48,311 nt of DNA from Dimargaris cristalligena (Eukaryota), in contig ML002279.1 of the NCBI GenBank assembly GCA_003614675.1, forward strand, positions 1 through 48,311. Reading direction: 5' to 3'. Of the stretch, positions 13,299 through 46,971 are shown one piece after another. The position numbers and the translations under genes were made by a program. Position 1 is the stretch's first letter; each line of letters starts with the position of its first letter. The notes under the pieces were generated by a model. It was not told the origin of the DNA. It was given only the letters and a program-made list of their open reading frames with translations, and ran no database searches.

Positions 13299-16097
13299 AT
13301 GTTGTACCGATTTTTCGTCCTCCTCGTCTACCTATTTTCCCAACTGGTTTACTTATGCCACACTGGTCTCCCACCGCCACCCGCTATGAGTGTGCTCACG
13401 CCAGTGGCCTATCCCATTTTGCCTTCATTTTCCGAGCCGCCCTCCACCCTTTACATCTCTACTTCCTCGTCTGCTTCTTCTTCCACCGATTTTTCCACCA
13501 GCGACATTGTCCGCCGCGGCCTACCCTCTAACATCCCCCCGCCCCGCAACTCGTGGCGTAAACTCAAGGGGCTTGTGACCGCTAAATTACTGTTCGGACC
13601 TAAGCGTCGTCGTTCCAAGGGCAGTCAAGAGTTCTTCCGCCTTAACCTGGAGAGCCTTCCGCAGGAATCGGTGGTGGTGCCGCCGGTCGCCCACCCCCAG
13701 ATCTGTTCCGTCGACACCCGCCGGCCCACCCTCGAGTCCAGCCATTTCTATAAGCTGAGCTCGGGCTGGGACCTCCGTTCGGTCCGGCTCGACTACGCCA
13801 GTCACTGTTTCAGCTGGGCCCATCTGGGCCGGTCCCGGAAAGTCCTGCCCTTTGAGGACATTCTGGGCGTCCGCGTGGGGGAGGAGGTCGACTGGATCCT
13901 CACCGAGTTGGATGAGGAAACGGTGGCCTCACCCTACCGCCTGTGCATTTTTTACCTCGAGCAGGCCCGGCCCCGCAACCTCTGTCTGGCCGTGGACGAC
14001 ATCGTCACCCTCCACGTGTGGTACAATGCCCTCGTGGAGATTATCCGCAATCGATCGGACCTAGACACCGCCGAGCTCTACCGCCTCCATGCCCTGGTCT
14101 GGACCCAGCGGGCCGCTACCGGGACCGCCGGCCGGGGTACCCAAATCTTACCGTCTCTCTCCTCCGCCACCTTTGAGTCGGGCATTCCCGAGCTGTGGCC
14201 CGTCTTCGAGCACTACTCAACCCTGGTGGATGCCAATAATTCCACCCGCTACATGCCCATTGATCATTTCCACAAGTTCCTCACCAGCGCCCAGCAGGAA
14301 GAAATTACGCTGGAAGCGGCCCACGCTCGGCTAACCCACTTCGCCGGTCGGCCCTGGCTTTTCTTCCCCGAGTTCAGCGCCTACGTCACCTCGTTCGTCA
14401 ATGCCATGCGCAATCCGGTGGCTGTGGCCCCCGTCGATGCCAGCCTACCACTCTCCCAGTATTTTATCAAGTCCTCCCACAACACCTACCTAACCGGTAA
14501 CCAATTCTCGAGCAAGTCTTCCATCGACGCCTATATTCTGCCCCTGTTGGCGGGCTGCCGGTCCGTCGAGATTGACGTGCTGGACTACAAGAACGAACCC
14601 TACGTTTACCACGGCTATACCTTTACCAGCCGCATCCCCTTCAAGCTGGTGCTGCAGGTCATTCGCAAGTACGCCTTCGTCACCTCGGACTTTCCCCTGA
14701 CCCTTTCCCTCGAGACCCACTGCAAGGCCCCCCAGCAGATCAAGATGGCCCAGTATATGCGCGATGTCCTGGGTGAGCTCCTGGTCACCGAATCTCTGGA
14801 TGCGGAGGTTATGGACCTCCCGTCCCCCGAGCAACTGAGCCGCCGCATTCTAATTAAGAATAAAGCGGCTGCCGCCCACGATCCGAATAGCACCCGCCCG
14901 CTCCCCGATGCCGAGCGCCACCACTCGGCCCAATCCAGCAGTGACGGGACCAACTCCAGCATGCCTGAGGCCAAGGGCGGCCCGAGCAGCAGCATCCTTT
15001 CCAAAAAGGTCAAGTTCGTGAGTGACCTGGCCCAGCTGAACGTCTACCACCAGGGGAGCCGGTTGCCCAAGCTGCCCCGGTCCAGCGACTCCCCGGACCT
15101 GGGACCCTTCCAGCCCCATTTTGACCAGATCTTCTCCCTGCCCGAGAACAAGCTGGCCAGTTACCAAAATGACTTCGACCGCTTGGTGCGCATCACTTCA
15201 ACCAATATTATCCGCACCTTCCCCAAATACACCCGCGTGTTCTCCGGTAATTACAACCCCCTATCCTTCTGGGCGGTCGGATCCCAAATGGTGGCCCTGA
15301 ACTACCAGAGCTTCGACTTTCACACCCAGATGAACCAGGCTCTGTTCCACCCTGGTAATCGGGCCGGCTATTTGCTGAAACCGGACCACCTTCGTTATCC
15401 GACCGAACCCGACCGCTGGGACGGCCCTCCCACAACCACACTGTCCATCCGGGTGTTGGCCGTTATGCATTTGCCCGAATTTTACGACCGGTCCCAGGAC
15501 CCCGAACTCCTGGTCGAACACGTCGCCCCGAACCCGGAGACCCTGGCCCAACTGACCAATCTCGCTGGGACTTCCGACCAGGTGTACGAAAAGCTGGAGC
15601 GGATCCACGGCCATGACGTTCGCCTGCACCTCACGTCCTCCAGCTCCTCGCGCCCCTCCAATACGGACAATTGGGTGACCCCCATGAGCAACCACCCCAT
15701 TACCCCAGACGATCTGCCCCGGTCAACGGGTCCAGCTACCACTACGTCCGCGCGCCGGCCGTCCCCACGTGGACGGGGGAGCAGCGGTTCAAACTCCCGA
15801 TTGAGCTCCAGCGATCCAACCATGTTGGACGACATGCGCGTGGGTGGTACCCCCCTGCAGTTCATTCGCTTCATTGTGCGGGACAAGGACGAGGTTTTGG
15901 CATCGGCCACTCTACGGGCGGATACCTTTGAGTGTGGCTACCGGGTCGTGCCCCTCGAAACCTTCGTGGAGGGCGGGTCCAAATCCGCTAGCGTATTAAT
16001 TGAAGTGAAGTGTCCCGTGTATTCCGATCATCCGCCGGTGATCCCTAAGCTAGTATTACAGTCCCCCATGGAAATACCGCCCATCCCCATCGACTAA
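13299..16097 (+). CDS. PLC1: Phosphoinositide-specific phospholipase C (delta-like: PH, EF-hand-like, X, Y, C2 domains)
   Basis: 932-aa intronless ORF. X box LSQYFIKSSHNTYLTGNQF...GCRSVEIDVLD...VYHGYTFTS...LSLETHC...LPSPEQLSRRILIKNK keeps the catalytic His/Glu/Asp residues. Y box IRTFPKYTRVFSGNYNPLSFWAVGSQMVALNYQ...GYLLKP. C-terminal C2 remnant FIRFIVRDKD...GYRVVPL. Start is uncertain: ATG 13299 or ATG 13386 (MSVLT). Confidence 0.95.
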   Translation: MLYRFFVLLVYLFSQLVYLCHTGLPPPPAMSVLTPVAYPILPSFSEPPSTLYISTSSSASSSTDFSTSDIVRRGLPSNIPPPRNSWRKLKGLVTAKLLFGPKRRRSKGSQEFFRLNLESLPQESVVVPPVAHPQICSVDTRRPTLESSHFYKLSSGWDLRSVRLDYASHCFSWAHLGRSRKVLPFEDILGVRVGEEVDWILTELDEETVASPYRLCIFYLEQARPRNLCLAVDDIVTLHVWYNALVEIIRNRSDLDTAELYRLHALVWTQRAATGTAGRGTQILPSLSSATFESGIPELWPVFEHYSTLVDANNSTRYMPIDHFHKFLTSAQQEEITLEAAHARLTHFAGRPWLFFPEFSAYVTSFVNAMRNPVAVAPVDASLPLSQYFIKSSHNTYLTGNQFSSKSSIDAYILPLLAGCRSVEIDVLDYKNEPYVYHGYTFTSRIPFKLVLQVIRKYAFVTSDFPLTLSLETHCKAPQQIKMAQYMRDVLGELLVTESLDAEVMDLPSPEQLSRRILIKNKAAAAHDPNSTRPLPDAERHHSAQSSSDGTNSSMPEAKGGPSSSILSKKVKFVSDLAQLNVYHQGSRLPKLPRSSDSPDLGPFQPHFDQIFSLPENKLASYQNDFDRLVRITSTNIIRTFPKYTRVFSGNYNPLSFWAVGSQMVALNYQSFDFHTQMNQALFHPGNRAGYLLKPDHLRYPTEPDRWDGPPTTTLSIRVLAVMHLPEFYDRSQDPELLVEHVAPNPETLAQLTNLAGTSDQVYEKLERIHGHDVRLHLTSSSSSRPSNTDNWVTPMSNHPITPDDLPRSTGPATTTSARRPSPRGRGSSGSNSRLSSSDPTMLDDMRVGGTPLQFIRFIVRDKDEVLASATLRADTFECGYRVVPLETFVEGGSKSASVLIEVKCPVYSDHPPVIPKLVLQSPMEIPPIPID

Positions 16098-18776: not shown

Positions 18777-20770
18777 CTAGAGATTGAGACTCGCGGTGCC
18801 CAGTTCATCCTCGTCGGCTTTACTTCGGTCCGAACTAAATTGGTGGCGACTCAAATTAAGAGGGGCAATTAGATCCAGGTACCAGAAACGGCCCCCACTT
18901 CTCAGTTCAAGCAGAATGGCTTCCAGGGACTCATCCGGATACCCCTTACCCACCGAATTGGAGCAGGGGGCCGTTTCCGGGCATGTTTGGCTATGGGCGG
19001 TTGCTCGCGGGGTATCCAAGACATGAGAAATAAGGGAGTCCAGGTCCGCGAAACTATGTACACCCTCCTCGTCTTGATGTAATGACAGTAATGCCAGCTT
19101 AGAAGAGATCCCCGTCGACTCTTGTGCAGCAGCCTTGCACTGTCTGTACCAATGTGTCAGTTCTACGGGTACTGCATCAGGTGCTTTGCTAAATGTATCT
19201 ACATCCAGGCGGGCGTCCTTGTCACCTGGATACAGTTCATGGCAATAGAACTGGCTGGCCTGCGCCAGCAATTGTTCAATGGCCGTAAGTTCCCGCTGTA
19301 TTTTGATGGACACGAAGGTCAGGGTGGACGAGGTAGGCCAATGGGCATTTGCAAGCAAGAACTGAGCCTTCTTAAATGCCTGAATGGCGAAAAGGGTTAG
19401 AATGGCGAGGCCATCCTGGTTCCCAGACTGGGTAGGCGTAGGGGGTACCGATCCAAAATGGGCCAGACCTTTGGTCAGTAGATCTTCGGGTAGCCGGTAA
19501 TCCAGTAGAAGCCCGTCGAGTAAGTCGCCCGTCAGCGAAGATGCCTCTAAACCACGTTGGAAGAAAGTGTGCTCAGTATTGCCAATCGACTGGGCTGACT
19601 GTACATAGAGGTGGTTGACTACACCCATTAAGAAAGTCAATCCCACCAGGTACCATGCGTGGTGATCATTCTTCCTCAGCGACAGAAATTGTCGAAAATC
19701 GGACAAGGCCGCTAGAAGTACGTACATCCCGATATATCGGTTGGGTTAAATATAATGAAGACAAAAACCATTAAAGGGAGTGGTGGTTAGATGTATATTT
19801 GGGATATACTTGATCGATCATTGATAAAATTATGCGTGGCCCGTTAAATCAAACCCCGGGCTTTATAATCCAACTGTTGGAATACTAACCTGCATAAGAT
19901 CTTGTGGCAAGGTTGAGGCGTCCCCGAATATAAAACGGCCCTGGATCCTGGTTGATTGTCTGAGATATAGGGGAGAACCGTAACATCGCAAACATACATA
20001 GATAATATTAACACCTACTAGTGATTGGATTGAAACACAAACAAATTTGATGTTTAAGATAATTAACGCCGATGGGGTTTAATATAAAAAGTGCATTCCA
20101 AAAACTTTATCAAATATACTTACTACACCATCGATCAGCGTCTTCACGCTCTTAAAATCGCCCATTCTTAGAGCACATTCAGCCGCGGTAAATACCGTGT
20201 CAGAGCAAAATACATAATTTCGGCCGTTCGTCGAACCATTCTCTGCGGCCGATATAAATTCTTTACAAAGGGCGAAGGTTTCTGGGTACCGCTCCTGGTA
20301 ATATAAATAGTCGATGCATTCCCGAATCTCATTCGGGCCGTGCTTTTCGGCAAACCAGACGGTGACTGGCTTCTGACCTAACAGCAGTAATCCGTGCTAG
20401 TTGATGGATCGGGGTGGTGACAAAAGTAAGTGGTGCCGAATTGACAAAATTAATTAAATGCGTATTAGTATTGCTTTTCATTGTGTGAATTGCAAGACGA
20501 TTAGCTAAACCAACTCAGGCACAACACCCGAGCCATTAAAAGCCTGGGTCAATGATGAATCGAGGGTGGGTATGCTGGACTCGATGGCCATGGGGTGTCA
20601 TAACTTACTCCGGGGGTTACTTGTTTAGCTTCGTACATATCCAACTGCGGTTGGAGGTTAAACTTCAGACGTTCGGCCTGGCGGTCAACCGAATCCCCAA
20701 ACAACTCCAAGTCGTCCTCATCGTCCGAGCCACCGAACTGGAAAATGCCGTGGGATTCATTGGCGTCCAT
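18777..20770 (-). CDS. C8orf76-like TPR-repeat protein, 4 exons, ~479 aa
   Basis: Manually spliced exons 20770-20609, 20396-20124, 19959-19890 and 19711-18777. Donors GTAAGT/GTAAGT/GTTAGT and acceptors TAG/CAG/TAG have consistent phases (1440 nt total). Acidic N-terminus (FGGSDDEDDLELFGDS...YEAKQVTPG...WF), DYLYYQERY, and FLSLRKNDHHAW resemble my recollection of the C8orf76 family (YCAKLCEPQWF / GDLAYRRQEY / LISLHPFNPWNW). The gene model is firmer than the family call. Confidence 0.75.
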
Positions 20771-21344: not shown

Positions 21345-23238
21345 ATGCCACGCTACCTCGTCCATTTCGCTCAATTCCACGAGGACTTCCGACTGGCTGA
21401 GCTCGAGGCTCTGGCCCAATTGGAGAATATCCCGTTGAAGTACGAGCCCGATGCCTACAGCAACGACAATCCCTTTCTCCTGGTCGAACTGCCCTCCAAC
21501 GAAGATGCCCGGCGGCTTGTGCAGCGTGCTATCCTAGTCAAAGAGATTTGCGAGTACTGGGGTAGTGGCGATAGCTATGACAGTCTCTTTGCGCATTTGA
21601 AGACCACTCCAGAACGCTGGGTAAGGAAGAGGCCATATGGGCACTACTATGGTTCGCTGTCGGCTTTGAGCGAAATAATGCCATATACCACTGCTTCAGG
21701 CCCAAAGCCAGCGTTATATAAGGTCGTTCCTTGAAGGTTGTGGGTTGGTAAAACAGCCCTCAACCTAATTCACCAGTAACAACTACTAACCCCCCCCACC
21801 TATTTTTCTTCTAATACCCTAAAACCGACGCACCTTGTAATTGGTGGATTATGGACTATAGGATGATTTCAAAACGTGCTCATTCAAGTTCCTGGTCAAG
21901 GCCTTCGGGGGAACCCGCACCATTAAGGAGCAGATCAAAATCATCAACACCTTTTCCTTCCTGGCGTTCGAGGGGCCGATTGATCTTAAGAACCCCGACG
22001 AGGTGTTTATTGTTTACGAAGACTATGGCAACGATCCCATTCTCCAAAAAGCCTTGACCAACCCCAACGAAATCCATTTTGGCCGTTTGGTACGTGGCAT
22101 TCAGACCATTTTTAAGTGACTGACTTGACTGAAATGTAGCATAGAGTATACACCCCCCCCCGAAATTAAGAACCAAATTTGCTAACTCCACACTCAATGT
22201 CCCAATTTTATCGGCTTATTGTTATGTCAACCTATGTAGATTGCGTATAGTAATCGCGATGTTGTCCAAACCTACAATCTCAAAAAACGGGAATATCTGG
22301 GGAATACGTCCATGGACGCCGAGCTGTCCCTGGTCATGGCCAATCAGGCTCTAGCCCGACCAGGCACCATCACGTACGACCCTTTTGTAGGCACGGGCAG
22401 TTTCCTCCTGACCTGCGCCCACTTTGGGGCCTTCACCATGGGCTCGGATATTGATGGGCGGCAGATTCGGGGCGCCCGGGGGGAGACCGACGGCATCAAG
22501 ACCAACATCAAGCAGTACGGTCTCGACAAGCTCATTCTGGACACTCTGGTGTTCGACATCAGCCGCAACCCCTGGCGTCAAAACAACAGTGGGGGTACCA
22601 GTACCCGGGGCGGACCCTGGTTCGACGCCATTGTGACCGACCCCCCCTATGGGGTGCGGGCCGGGGCTAAGCGACTGGGTCGGAAGACTGGTTTGAACCC
22701 CGAGCTCAGTTTCGTCGAGGTCGAGGGTACGGTCAATCACCTCCGCTCCGACTATTACCCCCCGACCGTACCTTACGAAATGTCCGAGGTACTCACTGAT
22801 CTTCTGGAATTTGCGGCCCGGCACTTGGTAGTAGGGGGTCGCCTAGTCTACTGGCTTCCGACGGTGGTGGACGAGTATTCGTCCGACGATGTACCTCTCC
22901 ACCCGTGCCTGGAATTGAAGGCTAACAGCGAACAGAACTTCGGCTCGTGGTCGCGCCGCCTCATTACGATGGAAAAGTCCCGGGACTGGTGCTTGGATCT
23001 CAACCGGGCTTCATCGCATTACGTGGAACCCCCCGCTGAGCAAACCCGGCGGAAAAGGGAGAATCTCACCGGTGCCACCATCGCGGCTGCGCAGGTCTCC
23101 GACGAAACAGCGAAATCGACTCCACCAGTCCAGCTCGGCCACTACAACTTCAGAGAAAAGTACTTTTCCAAGTTTGACTCCAATTCCGGTTCGAGTACAC
23201 CGAATGAGGCCGTTATCCCGGCGGAACCAACTTCATAA
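21345..23238 (+). CDS. TRM11: tRNA (guanine(10)-N2)-methyltransferase catalytic subunit, 3 exons, ~500 aa
   Basis: Exons 21345-21620, 21862-22089 and 22240-23238 (phase-0 introns GTAAGG..TAG and GTACGT..TAG). Motifs: MPRYLVHFAQFHEDFRLAELEAL, FEGPIDLKNPD, YNLKKREYLGNTSMDAELSLVMANQA, SAM-binding YDPFVGTGS, GSDIDGR, DAIVTDPPYGVRAG. Confidence 0.96.
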
Positions 23239-32220: not shown

Positions 32221-32922
32221 CTAGTTGGTGGAGTTACCATTCTGGGTGTACAGCAGAGTGGAGTTGGAGGCATCCTGACTTGGTGGGCTCATCACGTCCC
32301 GAATGCTAAACTGGCCGTATTTGGAACCCATGGTGACGGCCGTTTGTAGAAGCTCGAGGAAGACATTATCCGCCACCATATTGAGCTGACGGTCATCGCG
32401 GCAGATGAAATTAACGCAACTCTTAAGCAGAGCTTGGCGCATTTCGTAAGTGAGCGTCGGAGCCGCTCCCGCCAGTACGGCCAGACTGAGCCCGTCCTCA
32501 TCGCCGGCAACGTTGATTTTGCAGCGGTGCTGGTTCATGGACGTTGTACTATTCTCTTTACCCCGGTAACGGTACACCTTGTGACAGAACCGACAGGCGG
32601 CGAAAGGGAGGTACTCATCGGTGGCGGTTTCGCGGACGAAACAGAACTTGTCCCAGCATTGGGAGGTCAGTGAAGGTGGGGGCGGGTGCAGCGTGAATTC
32701 GCCGCTGATGATTTTTTCGCGGATTTGGGTTTTGGTCAGTTCGGTGGTGGAGAAATCAACGCCCGCGTCGTTGAGGGCCTCCAGGAGCTGGATTGCCCGG
32801 GCCGTTGCGGGGGTGTTATCCACCGTGACTTCACCCGTCGTGGCCAACAGGGACGAGCCATCGTCGCTAGTCGGAAAGGCGACAATGTCGGCGGCGGATC
32901 CCGGAAACTCGGAGGTGTCCAT
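32221..32922 (-). CDS. BED zinc-finger + Hermes/hAT-type dimerization/DNA-binding domain protein, no DDE domain (probable domesticated hAT transposase fragment), ~233 aa
   Basis: Start at ATG 32922 (MDTSEFPG); the upstream part of the 309-aa ORF looks like intron/UTR, with an acceptor-like CTTATCGCAG ending at 32932. BED finger CWDKF...AACRFCHKVYRY...TTSMNQHRC is followed by ALLKSCVNFICRDDRQLNMVADNVFLELLQTAVTMGSKYG...DVMSPP, which resembles the Hermes transposase N-terminal domain. Confidence 0.8.
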   Translation of the reverse strand: MDTSEFPGSAADIVAFPTSDDGSSLLATTGEVTVDNTPATARAIQLLEALNDAGVDFSTTELTKTQIREKIISGEFTLHPPPPSLTSQCWDKFCFVRETATDEYLPFAACRFCHKVYRYRGKENSTTSMNQHRCKINVAGDEDGLSLAVLAGAAPTLTYEMRQALLKSCVNFICRDDRQLNMVADNVFLELLQTAVTMGSKYGQFSIRDVMSPPSQDASNSTLLYTQNGNSTN

Positions 32923-42978: not shown

Positions 42979-45900
42979 ATGACTAGCGGCCGCTCTTCCC
43001 GTTACTCTTTCCAGCCCGGTCAGTTTCCCTTTCCGCCCGAATACCCCGTGCCGTCGCCACCACCAGTACACGTCGAGCACCCCCCCGCCAAAATGATGAC
43101 CAACAGCCTGTTTCCCGGTATGGCCCAGTCCAAACCCGACTTTGAGAACCATGATCCTACCGTCGAGGTACCGTACGCCTTTTCCAGCTACACCGAGGCC
43201 ATGAAAAAGTGCACCCGCGATAACCGTGAATTCAAAGTCATCGTCCTCGAAAACCAGATGGAAATCATGCTTATCAACGACCCCGAGGCCGTCAACGCCT
43301 GCGGTGCCCTCAATCTGCTGGCCGGTAGTGGCCTCGACCCGCCGGGCCTCCACGGTCTGGCCAATTTAACCCTCAAATGGATGATGCGGGCGTCCAAGGC
43401 GTATCCCACTGACGGTCAAATCCACAATTTCATCAAGGAACACCGGGGTATCATTTACTCACACACCACACTCAAGACCACCGAAATCTCATTTGGTTTA
43501 CCCGCGGAGGAACTCAAGGAAACCCTCGAGCGGTTGGCCAGCCACCTGAGCGACCCCCTGTTCCAGCGTCAGGCCGCCGAAAAGGTGGTCCACGAAATTG
43601 ACCTCGACCACCGGAAATTCCTCAAGCAGGAGAATATGAGCATCAAGTTACTCGAGCGTAACTTCTTCAAACCGCAAGACAAGATGACCCACTTCAAAAC
43701 CGGAAATCGGGAAACTCTGCTGGTCAACCCACCTAAACTCGGTATCGACATCCACCAGGAGGCCGTCAAGTTCTTTGACTGCTACTATTCGTCTAATTTG
43801 ATGAAGATGGTGATTCTGGGTAACCAGGGTCTGCCCACATTGACCGAATGGGCCATTAATACCTTTTCCACCATCTACAACAAGATCGTGCCCGTGCCCC
43901 AGCTCGAGCGGATTCCCCTGCCCGCCGATTTTAACCGGCAAATTCTCGTCAAGTCCCACCAGCACACCCGTTCTCTGGTGCTGCTGTTCCCCCTGTTCTG
44001 CCAGGCCAATGGGCTCGCCACCGATGTGCCCGATGCACCCCTGCCAGGGGAGAGCCCCAACGCCAGCGGTAAGGACCTCTCCAACGGCGGTGTGGGGTCG
44101 GACAACGGTCACTACCCACACCACCACAACCATCACTCATCGGCCATGAGCGATTCGGATAAGAACTCGGTGCTCGAAAGCCAATCCGACCTCAAGTCGG
44201 GTCGCGGCGAAGAGGACATGTACGGTAAACCACGCAGTCGGCGCAGCAGTCTCAGCAGTGAAAGTATTCGCAGTCAGCTCAGTACCTCCACCACCGCGGC
44301 CCCTTCGTCCTATGCGAACGGGTCTATCCACGGCCGGATGCCTCCGATGCCCCCGAACATGATGAACCCCATGGGCTTCACGCCCCAGCAGATGGCGGCC
44401 ATGAATATGAATATGAATATGAACATGTACAATATGCAGCAGATGGCCGCCGCCATGGGCGGTATTAACCTCAACGGACACGGTGGGACGTCGCCCACGG
44501 GGGCGGGTAACGCCACCAATGGTGGAGCCCAGGGGATGTTCAACTTTCCCGGTATGCCTAATCCCTACATGATGCAGTCCGGCGCGGGCGGTTTCATGGG
44601 CAACCCTGCTTATAACCCTTACGCCTTTAATCCCAGCATGGCCATGGCCATGGGGATGAATATGGCCTTCATGGGCGGTTACGGCCACCCCGGCATGGCC
44701 GCTGCCGGAGGGGGGGCTCAGCGGGGTTATAATCCCCACATGGCGAACGGTGGCCACCACCCCCACATGATGAACGGGGCTGGATATCCGGGCATGGGTG
44801 GATTCATGAACCACTCGGGTATGCTGCAGGACGTAAGTGTGGGCCCGACCGCGGCCGGTTACCACTCCTCTACCCCCCAACTGGATATGCACGAGGAGTG
44901 GGCGCCCGCCCTCGCCTACATTCGCCACCTGCTGGAACTGCGCACCCCTGGTTCGATCATTCATTACCTCAACAAGAAGGGTTGGGGCACGTACATTCAT
45001 ACTTCGGATATTATGGATATGGACTGTGATACCCCCTTCTTTAAGCTGACCATCAGCCTAACCAAGGTCGGTTTCGAAGCCTACGAAGAGGTGGTCCGCG
45101 CGGTGTTCCAGTACATGTACATGATCCGCCGGGCCGGTATCCAGCACTGGCTGTATGACGAAATTCGTTCGATTGCGGCCATCAAGTTCTTCATGCGGGC
45201 CAAGTACAACGATTTCGATTGTCCCCGTTTCTCCGACATGATGGCCCGCGACGACCTGGCCCCCAACATGTACGTCTGCGACCACGCCATGTACTATCAG
45301 TGTAATCCTGACGTGATCCACCAGGCCCTGGCCTGCTTCCACCCCAAGAACTTCGCCGTGTTGGTCGTGAGCCGGGACATTGAGTCTCCCGGTATGTCGC
45401 GCGAAATGTACTACGAAACCAAGTACCAGGTCACGTCGCTGCCGCTGACCCTCCAGATGGCCTTGGCCAACCTGAAGCGCAACGACAAGTTCTTCCTGCC
45501 CTCCAAGAATCCCTACGTGATTGAGCGCTGGGAGAACCTGGAGTCCTCTGGTCAGCCCGACAAGTCCATCTCGATTCTGTCCGATACGCCCCAGAGCCGC
45601 TGCTGGTACTTCCGTACGAACCACTTTACGCCACCCCGCAGTAACATCCACATTGCCCTGCAAAGCCCCCTGTCGTTCAAGACGCCCGCCTCCAGTGTGC
45701 GTACTAAGATCATGATCAAGTTATTGCAGGAGCGTTGTAAGAAGCTCATCGACTCGTCCAGTTCCGCCGGGGCCGCTTCCATGTTCTATTCCATCGACGC
45801 CGGTCCGGATGGTATCCAAATCTCGCTCGAGGGCTTCAACGAGAAGAACGACCTGATGCTGACCAACGTCTTCACCGCGCTCCACGACATCAAGGTGGAC

Positions 45901-46971
45901 CCCTACCGGCTGAAGTTCTTTATTGACGAGTACATTCTGGATCTCAACTGCGATTCATCCCAGAACTCGGAGTGCCCGACCATGTTCATCGAGAGCGCGC
46001 TCAAGGGTTACGTGTGGCCCCACGACGTGCAGCTCAATGAACTGCGCACCATCACCGTGAGCGACATTAGTCAGTTCATCCAGAACTACCTCAACCGTAC
46101 CCACGTCGAGATGTTCGTCACCGGTAACGCGACCGAGACCGAAGCTTTGGACTACCTCCACCTGGCCGAACGGTACATGAAGCGCACTTCGGTGCTTAAG
46201 GTTGAGCGGTACACCAACACGTCGATGCATATTCCCCTAGGCGGTCGGTTCCTCTACCGCCTGCGGACCAAGTCGCAGCTGGCCGCCCTTCCGTCGCCCA
46301 CGGGCATGGGTGGAATGGGAAACCCCACCGGACTACCGTCATCCAACTCATCGGACGAGCCCTCCCGGATCGCCTACTTCGTCCAAGTCGGTGACTGTTC
46401 CGAGGCGCGCCTCCGGGTCTACCAGGACCTGGTGGCCCGGGTGATCCACGACAAGTGTCTCCTATCCTTCATGGAACAGCTCAACCTCACCCAGATGGAA
46501 TGCCAGGTCCTGTGCAAGCCTAACCTTCCGCTTGGTATGGTGTTCTCGGCGGCCGGCCGCAAGGACCCTATGTTCCTGGAAAGCGGCATGGAACTGTGCC
46601 TGCAGACCGTGAAGCGGCACCTGTTGGACATGTCGCCCATTGTGCTGGAGGAACACGTAGAGAAGCTGCGTCAGGAGAAACTGACCCAGGCCAAGGGTGC
46701 CACTTCGACCCAGCTGTGGCACGGTATCATCTACGAATGCCCCTCCATCTACCAGGCCGAGGAGCTCGACATTCTGGCTTCCATCAACAAATCGGGACTC
46801 ATGGAATTCTTCAAGCGGTACTTCGATAAGAATACCCGTTACCTCACGAAACTCTCCGTTCATGTGTCAGCCCACGACAAGATGCCCATGATGGACGGTC
46901 AAGTGTTCGTCAAGGACGTCAAGATCCTTAAGACACTGCTGCAGAACTCGGAAATGCCCCGGTTGAACTAA
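42979..46971 (+). CDS. Insulinase family (M16A, IDE/Ste23/Axl1-like) protein, predicted catalytically inactive, with a large low-complexity insertion, ~1330 aa
   Basis: Intronless ORF, first ATG at 42979 (MTSGRSS). M16 hallmarks: DNREFKVIVLENQMEIMLINDP, GSGLDPPGLHGLA, FKTGNRETL, FFDCYYSSNLMKMVILG, HLLELRTPGSIIHYL, FFLPSKNPYV, HVEMFVTGN, KLSVHV. The HxxEH position reads NLTLK. Confidence 0.92.
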   Translation: MTSGRSSRYSFQPGQFPFPPEYPVPSPPPVHVEHPPAKMMTNSLFPGMAQSKPDFENHDPTVEVPYAFSSYTEAMKKCTRDNREFKVIVLENQMEIMLINDPEAVNACGALNLLAGSGLDPPGLHGLANLTLKWMMRASKAYPTDGQIHNFIKEHRGIIYSHTTLKTTEISFGLPAEELKETLERLASHLSDPLFQRQAAEKVVHEIDLDHRKFLKQENMSIKLLERNFFKPQDKMTHFKTGNRETLLVNPPKLGIDIHQEAVKFFDCYYSSNLMKMVILGNQGLPTLTEWAINTFSTIYNKIVPVPQLERIPLPADFNRQILVKSHQHTRSLVLLFPLFCQANGLATDVPDAPLPGESPNASGKDLSNGGVGSDNGHYPHHHNHHSSAMSDSDKNSVLESQSDLKSGRGEEDMYGKPRSRRSSLSSESIRSQLSTSTTAAPSSYANGSIHGRMPPMPPNMMNPMGFTPQQMAAMNMNMNMNMYNMQQMAAAMGGINLNGHGGTSPTGAGNATNGGAQGMFNFPGMPNPYMMQSGAGGFMGNPAYNPYAFNPSMAMAMGMNMAFMGGYGHPGMAAAGGGAQRGYNPHMANGGHHPHMMNGAGYPGMGGFMNHSGMLQDVSVGPTAAGYHSSTPQLDMHEEWAPALAYIRHLLELRTPGSIIHYLNKKGWGTYIHTSDIMDMDCDTPFFKLTISLTKVGFEAYEEVVRAVFQYMYMIRRAGIQHWLYDEIRSIAAIKFFMRAKYNDFDCPRFSDMMARDDLAPNMYVCDHAMYYQCNPDVIHQALACFHPKNFAVLVVSRDIESPGMSREMYYETKYQVTSLPLTLQMALANLKRNDKFFLPSKNPYVIERWENLESSGQPDKSISILSDTPQSRCWYFRTNHFTPPRSNIHIALQSPLSFKTPASSVRTKIMIKLLQERCKKLIDSSSSAGAASMFYSIDAGPDGIQISLEGFNEKNDLMLTNVFTALHDIKVDPYRLKFFIDEYILDLNCDSSQNSECPTMFIESALKGYVWPHDVQLNELRTITVSDISQFIQNYLNRTHVEMFVTGNATETEALDYLHLAERYMKRTSVLKVERYTNTSMHIPLGGRFLYRLRTKSQLAALPSPTGMGGMGNPTGLPSSNSSDEPSRIAYFVQVGDCSEARLRVYQDLVARVIHDKCLLSFMEQLNLTQMECQVLCKPNLPLGMVFSAAGRKDPMFLESGMELCLQTVKRHLLDMSPIVLEEHVEKLRQEKLTQAKGATSTQLWHGIIYECPSIYQAEELDILASINKSGLMEFFKRYFDKNTRYLTKLSVHVSAHDKMPMMDGQVFVKDVKILKTLLQNSEMPRLN
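44401..44424 (+). repeat. Coding (ATGAAY)4 repeat encoding MNMNMNMN
   Basis: atgaatatgaatatgaatatgaac within the M16 insertion. Confidence 0.9.

Follow-up and report, generated by a model that had tools for sequence, protein, structure and literature searches.

A methionine-rich insert, predicted to be disordered, in an apparently non-catalytic paralog of insulin-degrading enzyme from Dimargaris cristalligena

The gene, its fold, and its altered sites

The window considered here is a stretch of DNA of 48,311 nucleotides (nt) from Dimargaris cristalligena, analyzed as a whole (contig ML002279.1 of assembly GCA_003614675.1, positions 1 to 48,311 of the forward strand). Toward its end lies a gene for a protein related to insulin-degrading enzyme (IDE) of the M16A family, in which one short loop of the fold is replaced by a Met-rich insert of 300 amino acids (aa). 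The open reading frame (ORF), at 42979–46971 of the plus strand, counts 1330 codons from its first ATG, taken here as the start, and is interrupted by neither a stop nor an intron, as read from the ORF listing and its translation. The features that define the protein, the sites at which it departs from IDE, and the insert are the following, with residue numbers of the 1330-aa protein.

42979–46971, plus strand: intron-less coding sequence (CDS) for 1330 aa (P0001), a paralog of IDE/M16A fold that is predicted not to be a peptidase; ORF, Pfam, IDE match, and Foldseek
43363–43377, plus strand: position of the HxxEH zinc and catalytic motif, which reads NLTLK, residues 129–133; alignment to IDE and 147 homologs
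43597–43617, plus strand: region of the third zinc ligand (IDE Glu189), Asp here, IDLDHRK, residues 207–213; chain index 160 (+29 = 189) pairs with D209
43999–44898, plus strand: the insert, 300 aa, residues 341–640, in place of a 12-residue loop (human IDE 320–331); alignments and AlphaFold2 (AF2)
44926–44946, plus strand: equivalent of IDE exosite strand 336–342 (HLIGHEG), here HLLELRT, residues 650–656, invariant among the insert-bearing sequences; phmmer alignment
44995–45009, plus strand: equivalent of IDE exosite strand 359–363 (LVGGQ), here IHTSD, residues 673–677; phmmer alignment

The protein has the four-domain fold of insulin-degrading enzyme and belongs by fold to M16A. Pfam identifies Peptidase_M16, M16_C, and M16_M domains (matches of 1e-9, 6.3e-15, and 1.1e-41, all above the cut-offs), and a phmmer comparison with solved structures matches human IDE at an expectation value (E) of 1.8e-91 in two blocks, with query residues 75–339 corresponding to IDE chain positions 25–290 and query residues 646–1300 to 303–933. 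An AF2 model of the ortholog from Dispira parvispora was placed on IDE chains by Foldseek with E of 2e-69 and a target-normalized template-modeling score (TMt) of 0.66–0.71. A second D. cristalligena annotation, P0002, is 1308 aa long and 98% identical to the 1330-aa protein. The Pro-rich N-terminal 38 residues (42979–43095) have a partial counterpart only in Tieghemiomyces and none in Dimargaris xerosporica or Dispira, the proteins of which align from Met39.

The zinc-binding motif of IDE is gone from this protein and from its closest relatives. Six sequences from five species carry the insert, and all six have NLT[LQH][KH] at the position of HxxEH. The comparison set consisted of 147 of the 148 representatives P0009–P0156 (one sequence of 583 aa, below the 600-aa minimum, was left out, and P0004, a gene model of this same locus without the insert, was deliberately excluded); HxxEH is found in 138 of these homologs, HxxQH in 2, and the alignment does not cover the region in the remaining 7. 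At the position of IDE Glu189, both Dispira species have Glu and the other three insert-bearing species have Asp, but retention of an acid at this distal ligand position is irrelevant because the two zinc-binding His residues are gone. IDE numbering here is the Protein Data Bank (PDB) chain index plus 29, which agrees with His332, His336, Gly339, Val360, Gly361, and Gln363 as named in PMC3280214 and also reproduces the E111Q mutant in the title of a PDB entry.

The exosite has been rewritten as well. According to PMC3280214, the exosite of IDE docks the N terminus of the substrate about 30 Å from the catalytic center, and Val360, Gly361, and Gln363 are among its residues. In the D. cristalligena protein, neither strand of the exosite retains the HLIGHEG or LVGGQ sequence of IDE, and I673, H674, T675, and D677 of the second strand are, like the whole of the first, invariant within the insert-bearing clade. 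Because both the HxxEH motif and the exosite strands are lost, we have filed the protein as a non-peptidase M16A homolog rather than as a peptidase. To judge from these substitutions, it is a catalytically dead IDE paralog.

That the protein is a paralog follows from the presence of a canonical IDE in the same species. A HMMER scan of 1.84 billion representatives, for which the insert-free model P0004 served as query, returned 5537 matches, the best of which outside the clade's own clusters was the IDE of Choanephora, 29% identical. In a FastTree phylogeny of 153 sequences and 914 columns, the six insert-bearing sequences form a clade (support 1.0), the stem of which measures 1.55 substitutions per site. 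This clade is sister (0.97) to 11 IDEs from Kickxellomycotina, 10 of which were looked up by name; the 11 include the D. cristalligena "insulin-degrading enzyme" (P0032/P0169) and two Tieghemiomyces proteins. The canonical P0032 has HYCEH, a 12-aa loop, and LIGHEGAGS. Within the databases searched, the putatively dead family was seen only in Dimargaritales.

Within their own clade, beyond the long stem, the insert-bearing proteins have changed little. The path between D. cristalligena and Tieghemiomyces is 0.32 in the insert-bearing clade and 1.01 for canonical IDE, so that the folded domains of the dead paralog appear to evolve about three times more slowly than the active paralog of the same species. 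Such a burst of change followed by strong constraint argues for a function. The C termini also differ: 8 of the 31 homologs for which the ends were printed terminate in [SAP]KL, a peroxisomal-targeting-like tripeptide, and the four distinct ends in the insert-bearing clade are ...PRLN, ...GIPQ, ...RPAA, and ...PWST. As the clade has no [SAP]KL end, its localization may differ from that of canonical fungal IDEs.

Position, coding status, and anatomy of the insert

Exactly 300 residues (341–640) separate the anchor LVLLFPLF from the anchor WAPALAYIRHLL. The initial annotation of this DNA had described a Met-rich insertion in a dead insulinase fold at 44000–44892, between anchors about 10 residues apart in IDE. 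Its boundaries are essentially those set by the anchors (43999–44898), the absence of HxxEH bears out the word dead, and the spacing in IDE is right: the two phmmer blocks leave a gap and therefore place about 300 query residues where IDE has 12, and in a MAFFT alignment of the 147 nearest homologs from outside Dimargaritales this loop has a median length of 12 residues (range 8–22) and is no longer than 12 in 145 of 147. All six clade sequences have inserts of 227–300 aa at this site, those of the orthologs from Tieghemiomyces parasiticus, D. xerosporica, Dispira simplex, and Dispira parvispora being 227–282 aa long. The insert leads directly into the position of IDE His332 and then into exosite strand 336–342. 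On the alignments, it thus adjoins the former substrate-docking site of a cage in which both the catalytic and the docking sites appear to have been remodeled, a relationship that the initial annotation had missed. The parts of the insert, two stretches with intron-like boundaries, and a second insert elsewhere in the protein are listed below.

43999–44334, plus strand: N-terminal module, rich in Ser/Thr, His, and acidic residues, residues 341–452, with a fraction of charged residues (FCR) of 0.196 and a net charge per residue (NCPR) of −0.036; composition
44026–44895, plus strand: 870-nt "intron" of gene model P0004, GT...AG and in frame, judged a mis-annotation; boundaries read in the sequence
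44110–44136, plus strand: His tract HYPHHHNHH, residues 378–386; sequence
44236–44283, plus strand: Ser ladder SRRSSLSSESIRSQLS, residues 420–435, with the pattern S420 R421 x S423 S424 x S426 xx S429 xx S432 xx S435
44335–44838, plus strand: uncharged low-complexity tract rich in Met, Gly, Asn, Pro, and Ala with spaced Tyr/Phe, residues 453–620; FCR 0.018
44401–44424, plus strand: hexanucleotide run (ATGAAT)3-ATGAAC, encoding MNMNMNMN; sequence
44462–44527, plus strand: 66-nt in-frame GT...AG stretch, the removal of which gives exactly the 22-aa gap of P0002
44857–44898, plus strand: C-terminal flank GYHxxxPxLDxxxx, residues 627–640, directly before W641; alignment
46285–46359, plus strand: second insert, rich in Met, Gly, Pro, and Ser, 25 aa in a loop of domain 4, residues 1103–1127; alignment columns 1163–1187

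Whether the insert is protein at all had to be decided against P0004, the public partial gene model from the same contig. This model (756 aa) starts at Met48, joins ...LATD to EWAPA..., dropping 290 in-frame codons between a GT at 44026 and an AG at 44894–44895, and ends just before the second low-complexity insert at 46285–46359. If P0004 were correct, 44026–44895 would be a spliced intron; alternatively, the locus might be a decaying pseudogene. The statistical and comparative evidence goes against P0004. The insert has no stop in its 300 in-frame codons, with 13 and 10 stops in the other two forward frames, and the entire frame of 1330 codons is open. When the 290-codon segment was shuffled, a stop-free sequence was obtained in none of 20,000 mononucleotide shuffles and in 1 of 5000 dinucleotide shuffles. 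The GC content at third codon positions (GC3) of the insert, 0.743, is like that of exons (0.724 and 0.803 in the flanking CDS), and neighboring non-coding DNA has a GC content of 0.36–0.45. Five other annotations, in five species, translate the insert at this site, with invariant motifs in common. An intron should be free of coding constraint, and this segment, open in frame, exon-like in GC3, and invariant in its protein motifs across five species, is not. That P0004 is flagged as partial and halts before another low-complexity insert would fit a homology-guided model that skips non-homologous sequence, and its splicing is probably wrong. Despite the GT and AG at its boundaries, we consider an intron or a decaying pseudogene scarcely credible here. 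The 66-nt stretch within the tract may be a genuine short intron, or the gap in P0002 may come from the gene predictor or from variation between strains; the coding conclusion is the same in each case.

In composition, the insert departs strongly from the rest of the protein, with 15.7% Gly versus 4.2%, 11.7% Met versus 4.4%, 9.3% Asn versus 4.6%, 10% Ala versus 5.6%, and 8.7% Pro versus 6.2%. Its last 188 residues include 33 Met, 35 Gly, 21 Asn, 19 Pro, 22 Ala, and 15 Tyr or Phe, with only 6 Lys, Arg, Asp, or Glu. The modules differ in how they are conserved. Within the N-terminal module, the pattern SRxSSxSxxSxxSxxS of the Ser ladder has 8 columns within 16 residues that are invariant in all six sequences, and the remainder of the module is 16–29% identical between genera. 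The basophilic kinase consensus sites are RRxS and RxRxxS, and CK1 recognizes Ser at +3 from a primed residue. The ladder resembles such a basophilic site priming a +3-spaced cascade of the CK1 type. A His-rich run comparable to HYPHHHNHH is present in Tieghemiomyces, and none is visible in the alignment in D. xerosporica or Dispira. At the other end of the insert, the C-terminal flank has six invariant residues (G627, Y628, H629, P633, L635, and D636) and 45–65% identity between genera.

The tract between these flanks, which measures 170–190 aa and in D. cristalligena reaches slightly past residue 620, is conserved in composition. Across the five species, it contains 12–19% Met, 9–22% Gly, 4–16% Asn, 10–24% Pro, and 8–13% aromatic residues, with 0–4 charged residues in each. 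In D. cristalligena, 32 of 171 residues are Met, which against the background of the protein's own folded parts gives a binomial p of 3.8e-12; in the other four species, p ranges from 4.5e-6 to 4.6e-10, and Met makes up 3–4.4% of the folded parts. Sequence identity of the tract between genera is just 11–35%, compared with 56–80% in the folded parts, and between 3 and 12 aligned columns have Met in common. Among the 55 stop-to-stop ORFs of at least 100 aa in the 48-kb window, the tract holds the peak of Met density, 14 per 60 aa, the next-best value being 5. An alternating-Met (MxM) pattern was considered as a conserved feature and rejected. Judged against shuffled sequences, MxMxM is in excess in D. 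cristalligena, with 6 occurrences where 1.0 is expected (P = 0.0024), and in Dispira parvispora, with 3 where 0.5 is expected (P = 0.024). It is borderline in Dispira simplex (P = 0.062) and shows no enrichment in D. xerosporica or Tieghemiomyces, and neither MxM nor MxxM is significantly enriched in any of the five species. Because MxMxM is enriched in only two of five species, what is conserved in the tract is composition, not sequence or pattern. Replication slippage probably contributes to the tract, as suggested by the (ATGAAT)3 run and by repeats in Tieghemiomyces. The T. parasiticus ortholog, P0003, has about six tandem units of 9 residues, NGM[GN]N[FY]PG[AV], each with one Met and one aromatic residue and with the aromatics exactly 9 residues apart, a regular sticker-spacer array that is absent from the other species.

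The insert is predicted to be intrinsically disordered. In an AF2 model of a D. cristalligena fragment (residues 250–775), the predicted local distance difference test (pLDDT) score is 28–40 over residues 342–639, with no secondary structure. In the model of the Dispira parvispora ortholog, built from a 39-sequence alignment, residues 302–521 score below 50 (22–34), with one low-confidence helix. The flanking folded domains score 80–96, and the C-terminal flank, conserved as it is, has low pLDDT in both models. A word search with residues 450–625 of the tract, among proteins of 731–2328 aa, passed 1 of 1088 candidates, the conspecific P0002, and gives no information on tracts of this kind elsewhere; a search of the ESM Atlas with residues 400–640 gave no usable match. 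The picture that emerges supports the initial annotation at several points. It had named the His tract, the basophilic Ser cluster, and a nearly charge-free Met/Gly/Asn/Pro-rich tract, all of which lie where the list above places them, the tract beginning at residue 453 (44335); the composition counts and FCR agree with its description, and the architecture that it proposed, such a cluster beside such a tract in a dead cage of IDE fold, is real. Conservation of the insertion point and composition in related fungi, which it had set as a test beforehand, is found in five species, and the disorder prediction that it called for came out as disordered in both models.

The second, shorter insert, in domain 4, occurs in both D. 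cristalligena annotations and not in Tieghemiomyces or Dispira; at that position, D. xerosporica carries an insert of another kind, rich in Ser/Thr. Elsewhere in the window, an intron-less ORF of 932 aa at 13299–16097 (plus strand) encodes PI-PLC X and Y domains (E of 1.4e-53 and 3.8e-26); its N terminus is extended at length, and its C-terminal region is rich in Ser. An ORF of 308 aa at 22312–23238 (plus strand) matches positions 13–139 of an RMKL-like methyltransferase profile over its first 121 residues (E of 2e-7). With the domain beginning as early as residue 2, this ORF probably lacks an upstream exon. Two further ORFs, 18777–19727 (minus strand, 316 aa) and 32221–32922 (minus strand, 233 aa), match no Pfam family at E ≤ 0.001; the latter has a Cys/His-rich stretch that by eye might be a zinc finger.

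Possible roles of the insert

We regard it as highly probable that the gene encodes a real and conserved disordered insert within a constrained pseudoenzyme. Our best explanation of the whole protein, which we find plausible but would not yet call probable, combines a scaffold cage, a Met-rich association module, and a phospho-switch. The cage would act as a non-catalytic scaffold that binds peptides or proteins. The uncharged tract would be a multivalent, weakly sticky module for self- or hetero-association, of the class found in Pbp1, Pab1, and TDP-43, and could draw the scaffold into assemblies, by concentrating it or by recruiting it. The Ser ladder would be a multi-phosphorylation switch of the CK1 type, primed by a basophilic kinase and spaced at +3. 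Adding negative charge is a common way to weaken association of low-complexity sequence, and phosphorylation of the ladder would place up to about ten negative charges beside the nearly chargeless tract, making association looser; oxidation of Met could loosen it likewise. An assembly or switch function for the insert is itself a tentative proposal, possible but rather doubtful on the present analysis.

Several observations weigh against this explanation. Slippage at Met repeats, visible as the (ATGAAT)n run at 44401–44424 and in the Tieghemiomyces repeats, may partly account for the richness in Met, and the second Met/Gly-rich insert at 46285–46359 suggests that sequence of this kind may tend to expand here, locally or across the genome, instead of serving a specific function. 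The kinase assignment of the ladder is drawn from consensus motifs. Known Met-rich tracts are mostly found in RNA-binding proteins, at termini or in linkers, and the tract described here occupies an internal loop of an enzyme-derived cage. One public model of this contig, P0004, splices the segment out. Finally, long-branch attraction may distort the position of the insert-bearing clade in the tree and the dating of the duplication, which may be older than Kickxellomycotina or specific to Dimargaritales.

The insert could instead have arisen by passive expansion of a loop after catalysis and the exosite were lost, in which case it would be a tolerated entropic spacer, its composition set by slippage and mutational bias, with at most the Ser ladder and the C-terminal flank functional as short linear motifs. 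The low identity of the tract between genera (11–35%) and the variable length of the insert (227–300 aa) are what such an origin would produce, as are the repeats, (ATGAAT)3 in D. cristalligena and about six 9-aa units in Tieghemiomyces, the species-specific Met/Gly-rich insert in another loop of the same protein, and the 22-aa difference between the two D. cristalligena annotations within the tract. However, Met, which has a single codon, is held at 12–19% in five lineages (3–4.4% in the folded parts) while positions turn over, and charged residues number 0–4 per tract in all five species. The Met density of 14 per 60 aa, against at most 5 in the other ORFs of the window, and a loop of 12 aa in 145 of 147 other homologs also argue against passive growth. 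We consider it an unlikely account, if one to be taken seriously.

IDE prefers amyloid-prone peptides and degrades amyloidogenic ones, and a different possibility is that the insert or its C-terminal flank fills its own cage or that of a neighbor as a pseudo-substrate. The dead cryptase would then chaperone or auto-inhibit the aggregation-prone tract and release it on phosphorylation or oxidation. Consistent with such a tethered client or plug, the GYHxxxPxLD flank is conserved and yet not confidently folded, the residues of the cage appear strongly constrained despite the loss of catalysis, and the insert is anchored directly before the strand that corresponds to the place in IDE where the N terminus of the substrate docks, as that site is described in PMC3280214. 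Both exosite strands are changed, though (HLIGHEG to HLLELRT and LVGGQ to IHTSD), and IDE-like docking therefore cannot be assumed. In addition, the chamber of IDE is too small to enclose 300 residues, so that at most a segment could bind. The plug, on balance, strikes us as improbable. Cage and insert might be imagined as one device, in which the cage at the former exosite holds and releases the aggregation-prone tract, and ladder phosphorylation or Met oxidation flips the protein between a self-contained and an assembling state (condensate or fiber), as a built-in chaperone or gate; this we deem highly improbable. There is also only a very slim chance that the Met and His clusters form a metal-binding module, with Cu(I)/Ag(I) "Mets motifs" (MxM, MxxM) or His-rich sites by which the scaffold, itself devoid of zinc, would sense or buffer metal. 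The runs of MxMxMxM type, the MxMxM enrichment in D. cristalligena (P = 0.0024) and Dispira parvispora (P = 0.024), and the adjacency of His runs to Met in D. cristalligena would suit such sites. Against them, none of these motifs is enriched in D. xerosporica or in Tieghemiomyces (one MxM, one MxxM, and no MxMxM), the His tract has no conserved counterpart in Dispira or D. xerosporica, and no signal peptide is evident by eye in the N terminus. Met-based Cu(I) sites are typical of oxidizing compartments.

If the scaffold with its association module and phospho-switch is correct, the protein would illustrate a route by which a pseudoenzyme is rebuilt: catalytic and docking sites are lost or rewritten, a loop of otherwise conserved length is expanded 25-fold into a disordered module that is selected for composition and probably regulated by phosphorylation, and the whole protein is then constrained more than its active paralog. 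The range of Met-rich low-complexity domains would widen beyond RNA-binding proteins to include an enzyme-derived cage, and the protein would offer a natural test case for such tracts tethered at both ends inside a fold. In practical terms, the 1330-aa reading should take the place of the public model P0004, in which 290 codons are spliced out, and the insert-bearing paralog provides a lineage marker for Dimargaritales, an order of (obligate) mycoparasites. The impact is limited by the organism, as D. cristalligena is obscure and hard to manipulate. Among the papers listed in a literature search, judged by title and the opening of the abstract, we found no earlier description of this protein or architecture, the supplements of the genome papers PMC9866270 and PMC6784888 lying outside that search; the main text of PMC9866270 contains neither "M16" nor "insulinase".

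Comparison with known systems

With IDE, Ste23, Iph1, and Mug138 of M16A, the Dimargaritales protein has in common the four-domain clamshell fold and the Pfam domains M16, M16_C, and M16_M, and its nearest named relatives are the fungal IDEs of Choanephora, Basidiobolus, Phycomyces, and Kickxellomycotina and Mug138 of Schizosaccharomyces pombe. It differs from that family in having NLTLK for HxxEH, rewritten exosite strands, 227–300 aa of predicted disorder for a 12-aa loop, and no [SAP]KL at its C terminus, and in coexisting with a canonical IDE paralog. M16 folds without the zinc motif are familiar from α-MPP and the core proteins of cytochrome bc1, which have been kept as substrate-binding or structural subunits beside or instead of an active paralog; these are two-domain, hetero-oligomeric M16B proteins without a long low-complexity insert. 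Within M16A, a protease-independent function has been described for S. pombe Iph1 (PMC3691139).

Among M16A proteins, nardilysin (NRDC) offers the nearest precedent for a low-complexity insert. According to PMC13527935, its acidic domain binds polyamines as regulators, has evolved more rapidly than the fold, and is not required by the catalytic core. That insert, as described there, is about 90 aa long, 79% Asp/Glu, and located in domain 1 before HxxEH of an active enzyme. The Dimargaritales insert, in contrast, has an uncharged main tract (FCR 0.018), is Met-rich, measures 300 aa, and lies after domain 1, where domain 2 begins and ahead of the exosite, in an apparently dead enzyme; it is not an acidic insert of the nardilysin type.

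For the ladder, the closest models are those in which priming by PKA or another AGC kinase is followed by CK1, as in Ci/Gli or the FASP region of PER2. Like these, the ladder has Arg at −2/−3 of its first Ser pair and Ser at +3 (S423, 426, 429, 432, and 435), invariant in the five species; in Tieghemiomyces, the second Arg is His.

The tract is most like the Met-rich low-complexity domains of Pbp1, Pab1, and TDP-43, which drive or tune phase separation; droplets of Pbp1 melt on exposure to H2O2 and re-form with methionine sulfoxide reductase (Msr) enzymes, as reported in PMC8394241. Common to all are disorder, richness in Met with Gly, Pro, Asn, or Gln, few charges, and conservation of composition, and residues 433–472 of Pab1 have a Met/Pro/Gly/Asn make-up similar to that of the tract (PMC8394241). 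The word search with the tract, among proteins of 731–2328 aa, gave no sequence homology to them, its single match being P0002. The Met/Asn-rich linker of Pub1 was considered as a further analog and set aside, as no confirming passage was found. Met-rich prion-like domains are a defined class, delimited in PMC9312190 by a Met bias at fLPS p < 1e-5, at least 5 Met, and a PLAAC hidden-Markov call at a probability of at least 0.9. The Met count of the tract exceeds this minimum, its Met bias exceeds the threshold in the approximate binomial test used here in place of fLPS, and disorder is predicted by AF2. Overall, the "undescribed system" suggested in the initial annotation was an overstatement, as what we find is a lineage-specific variant that joins a non-peptidase M16A homolog to a Met-rich low-complexity domain. 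What is new is the combination, conserved in one fungal order, of a pseudo-M16A cage and, at its exosite, a Met-rich low-complexity domain.

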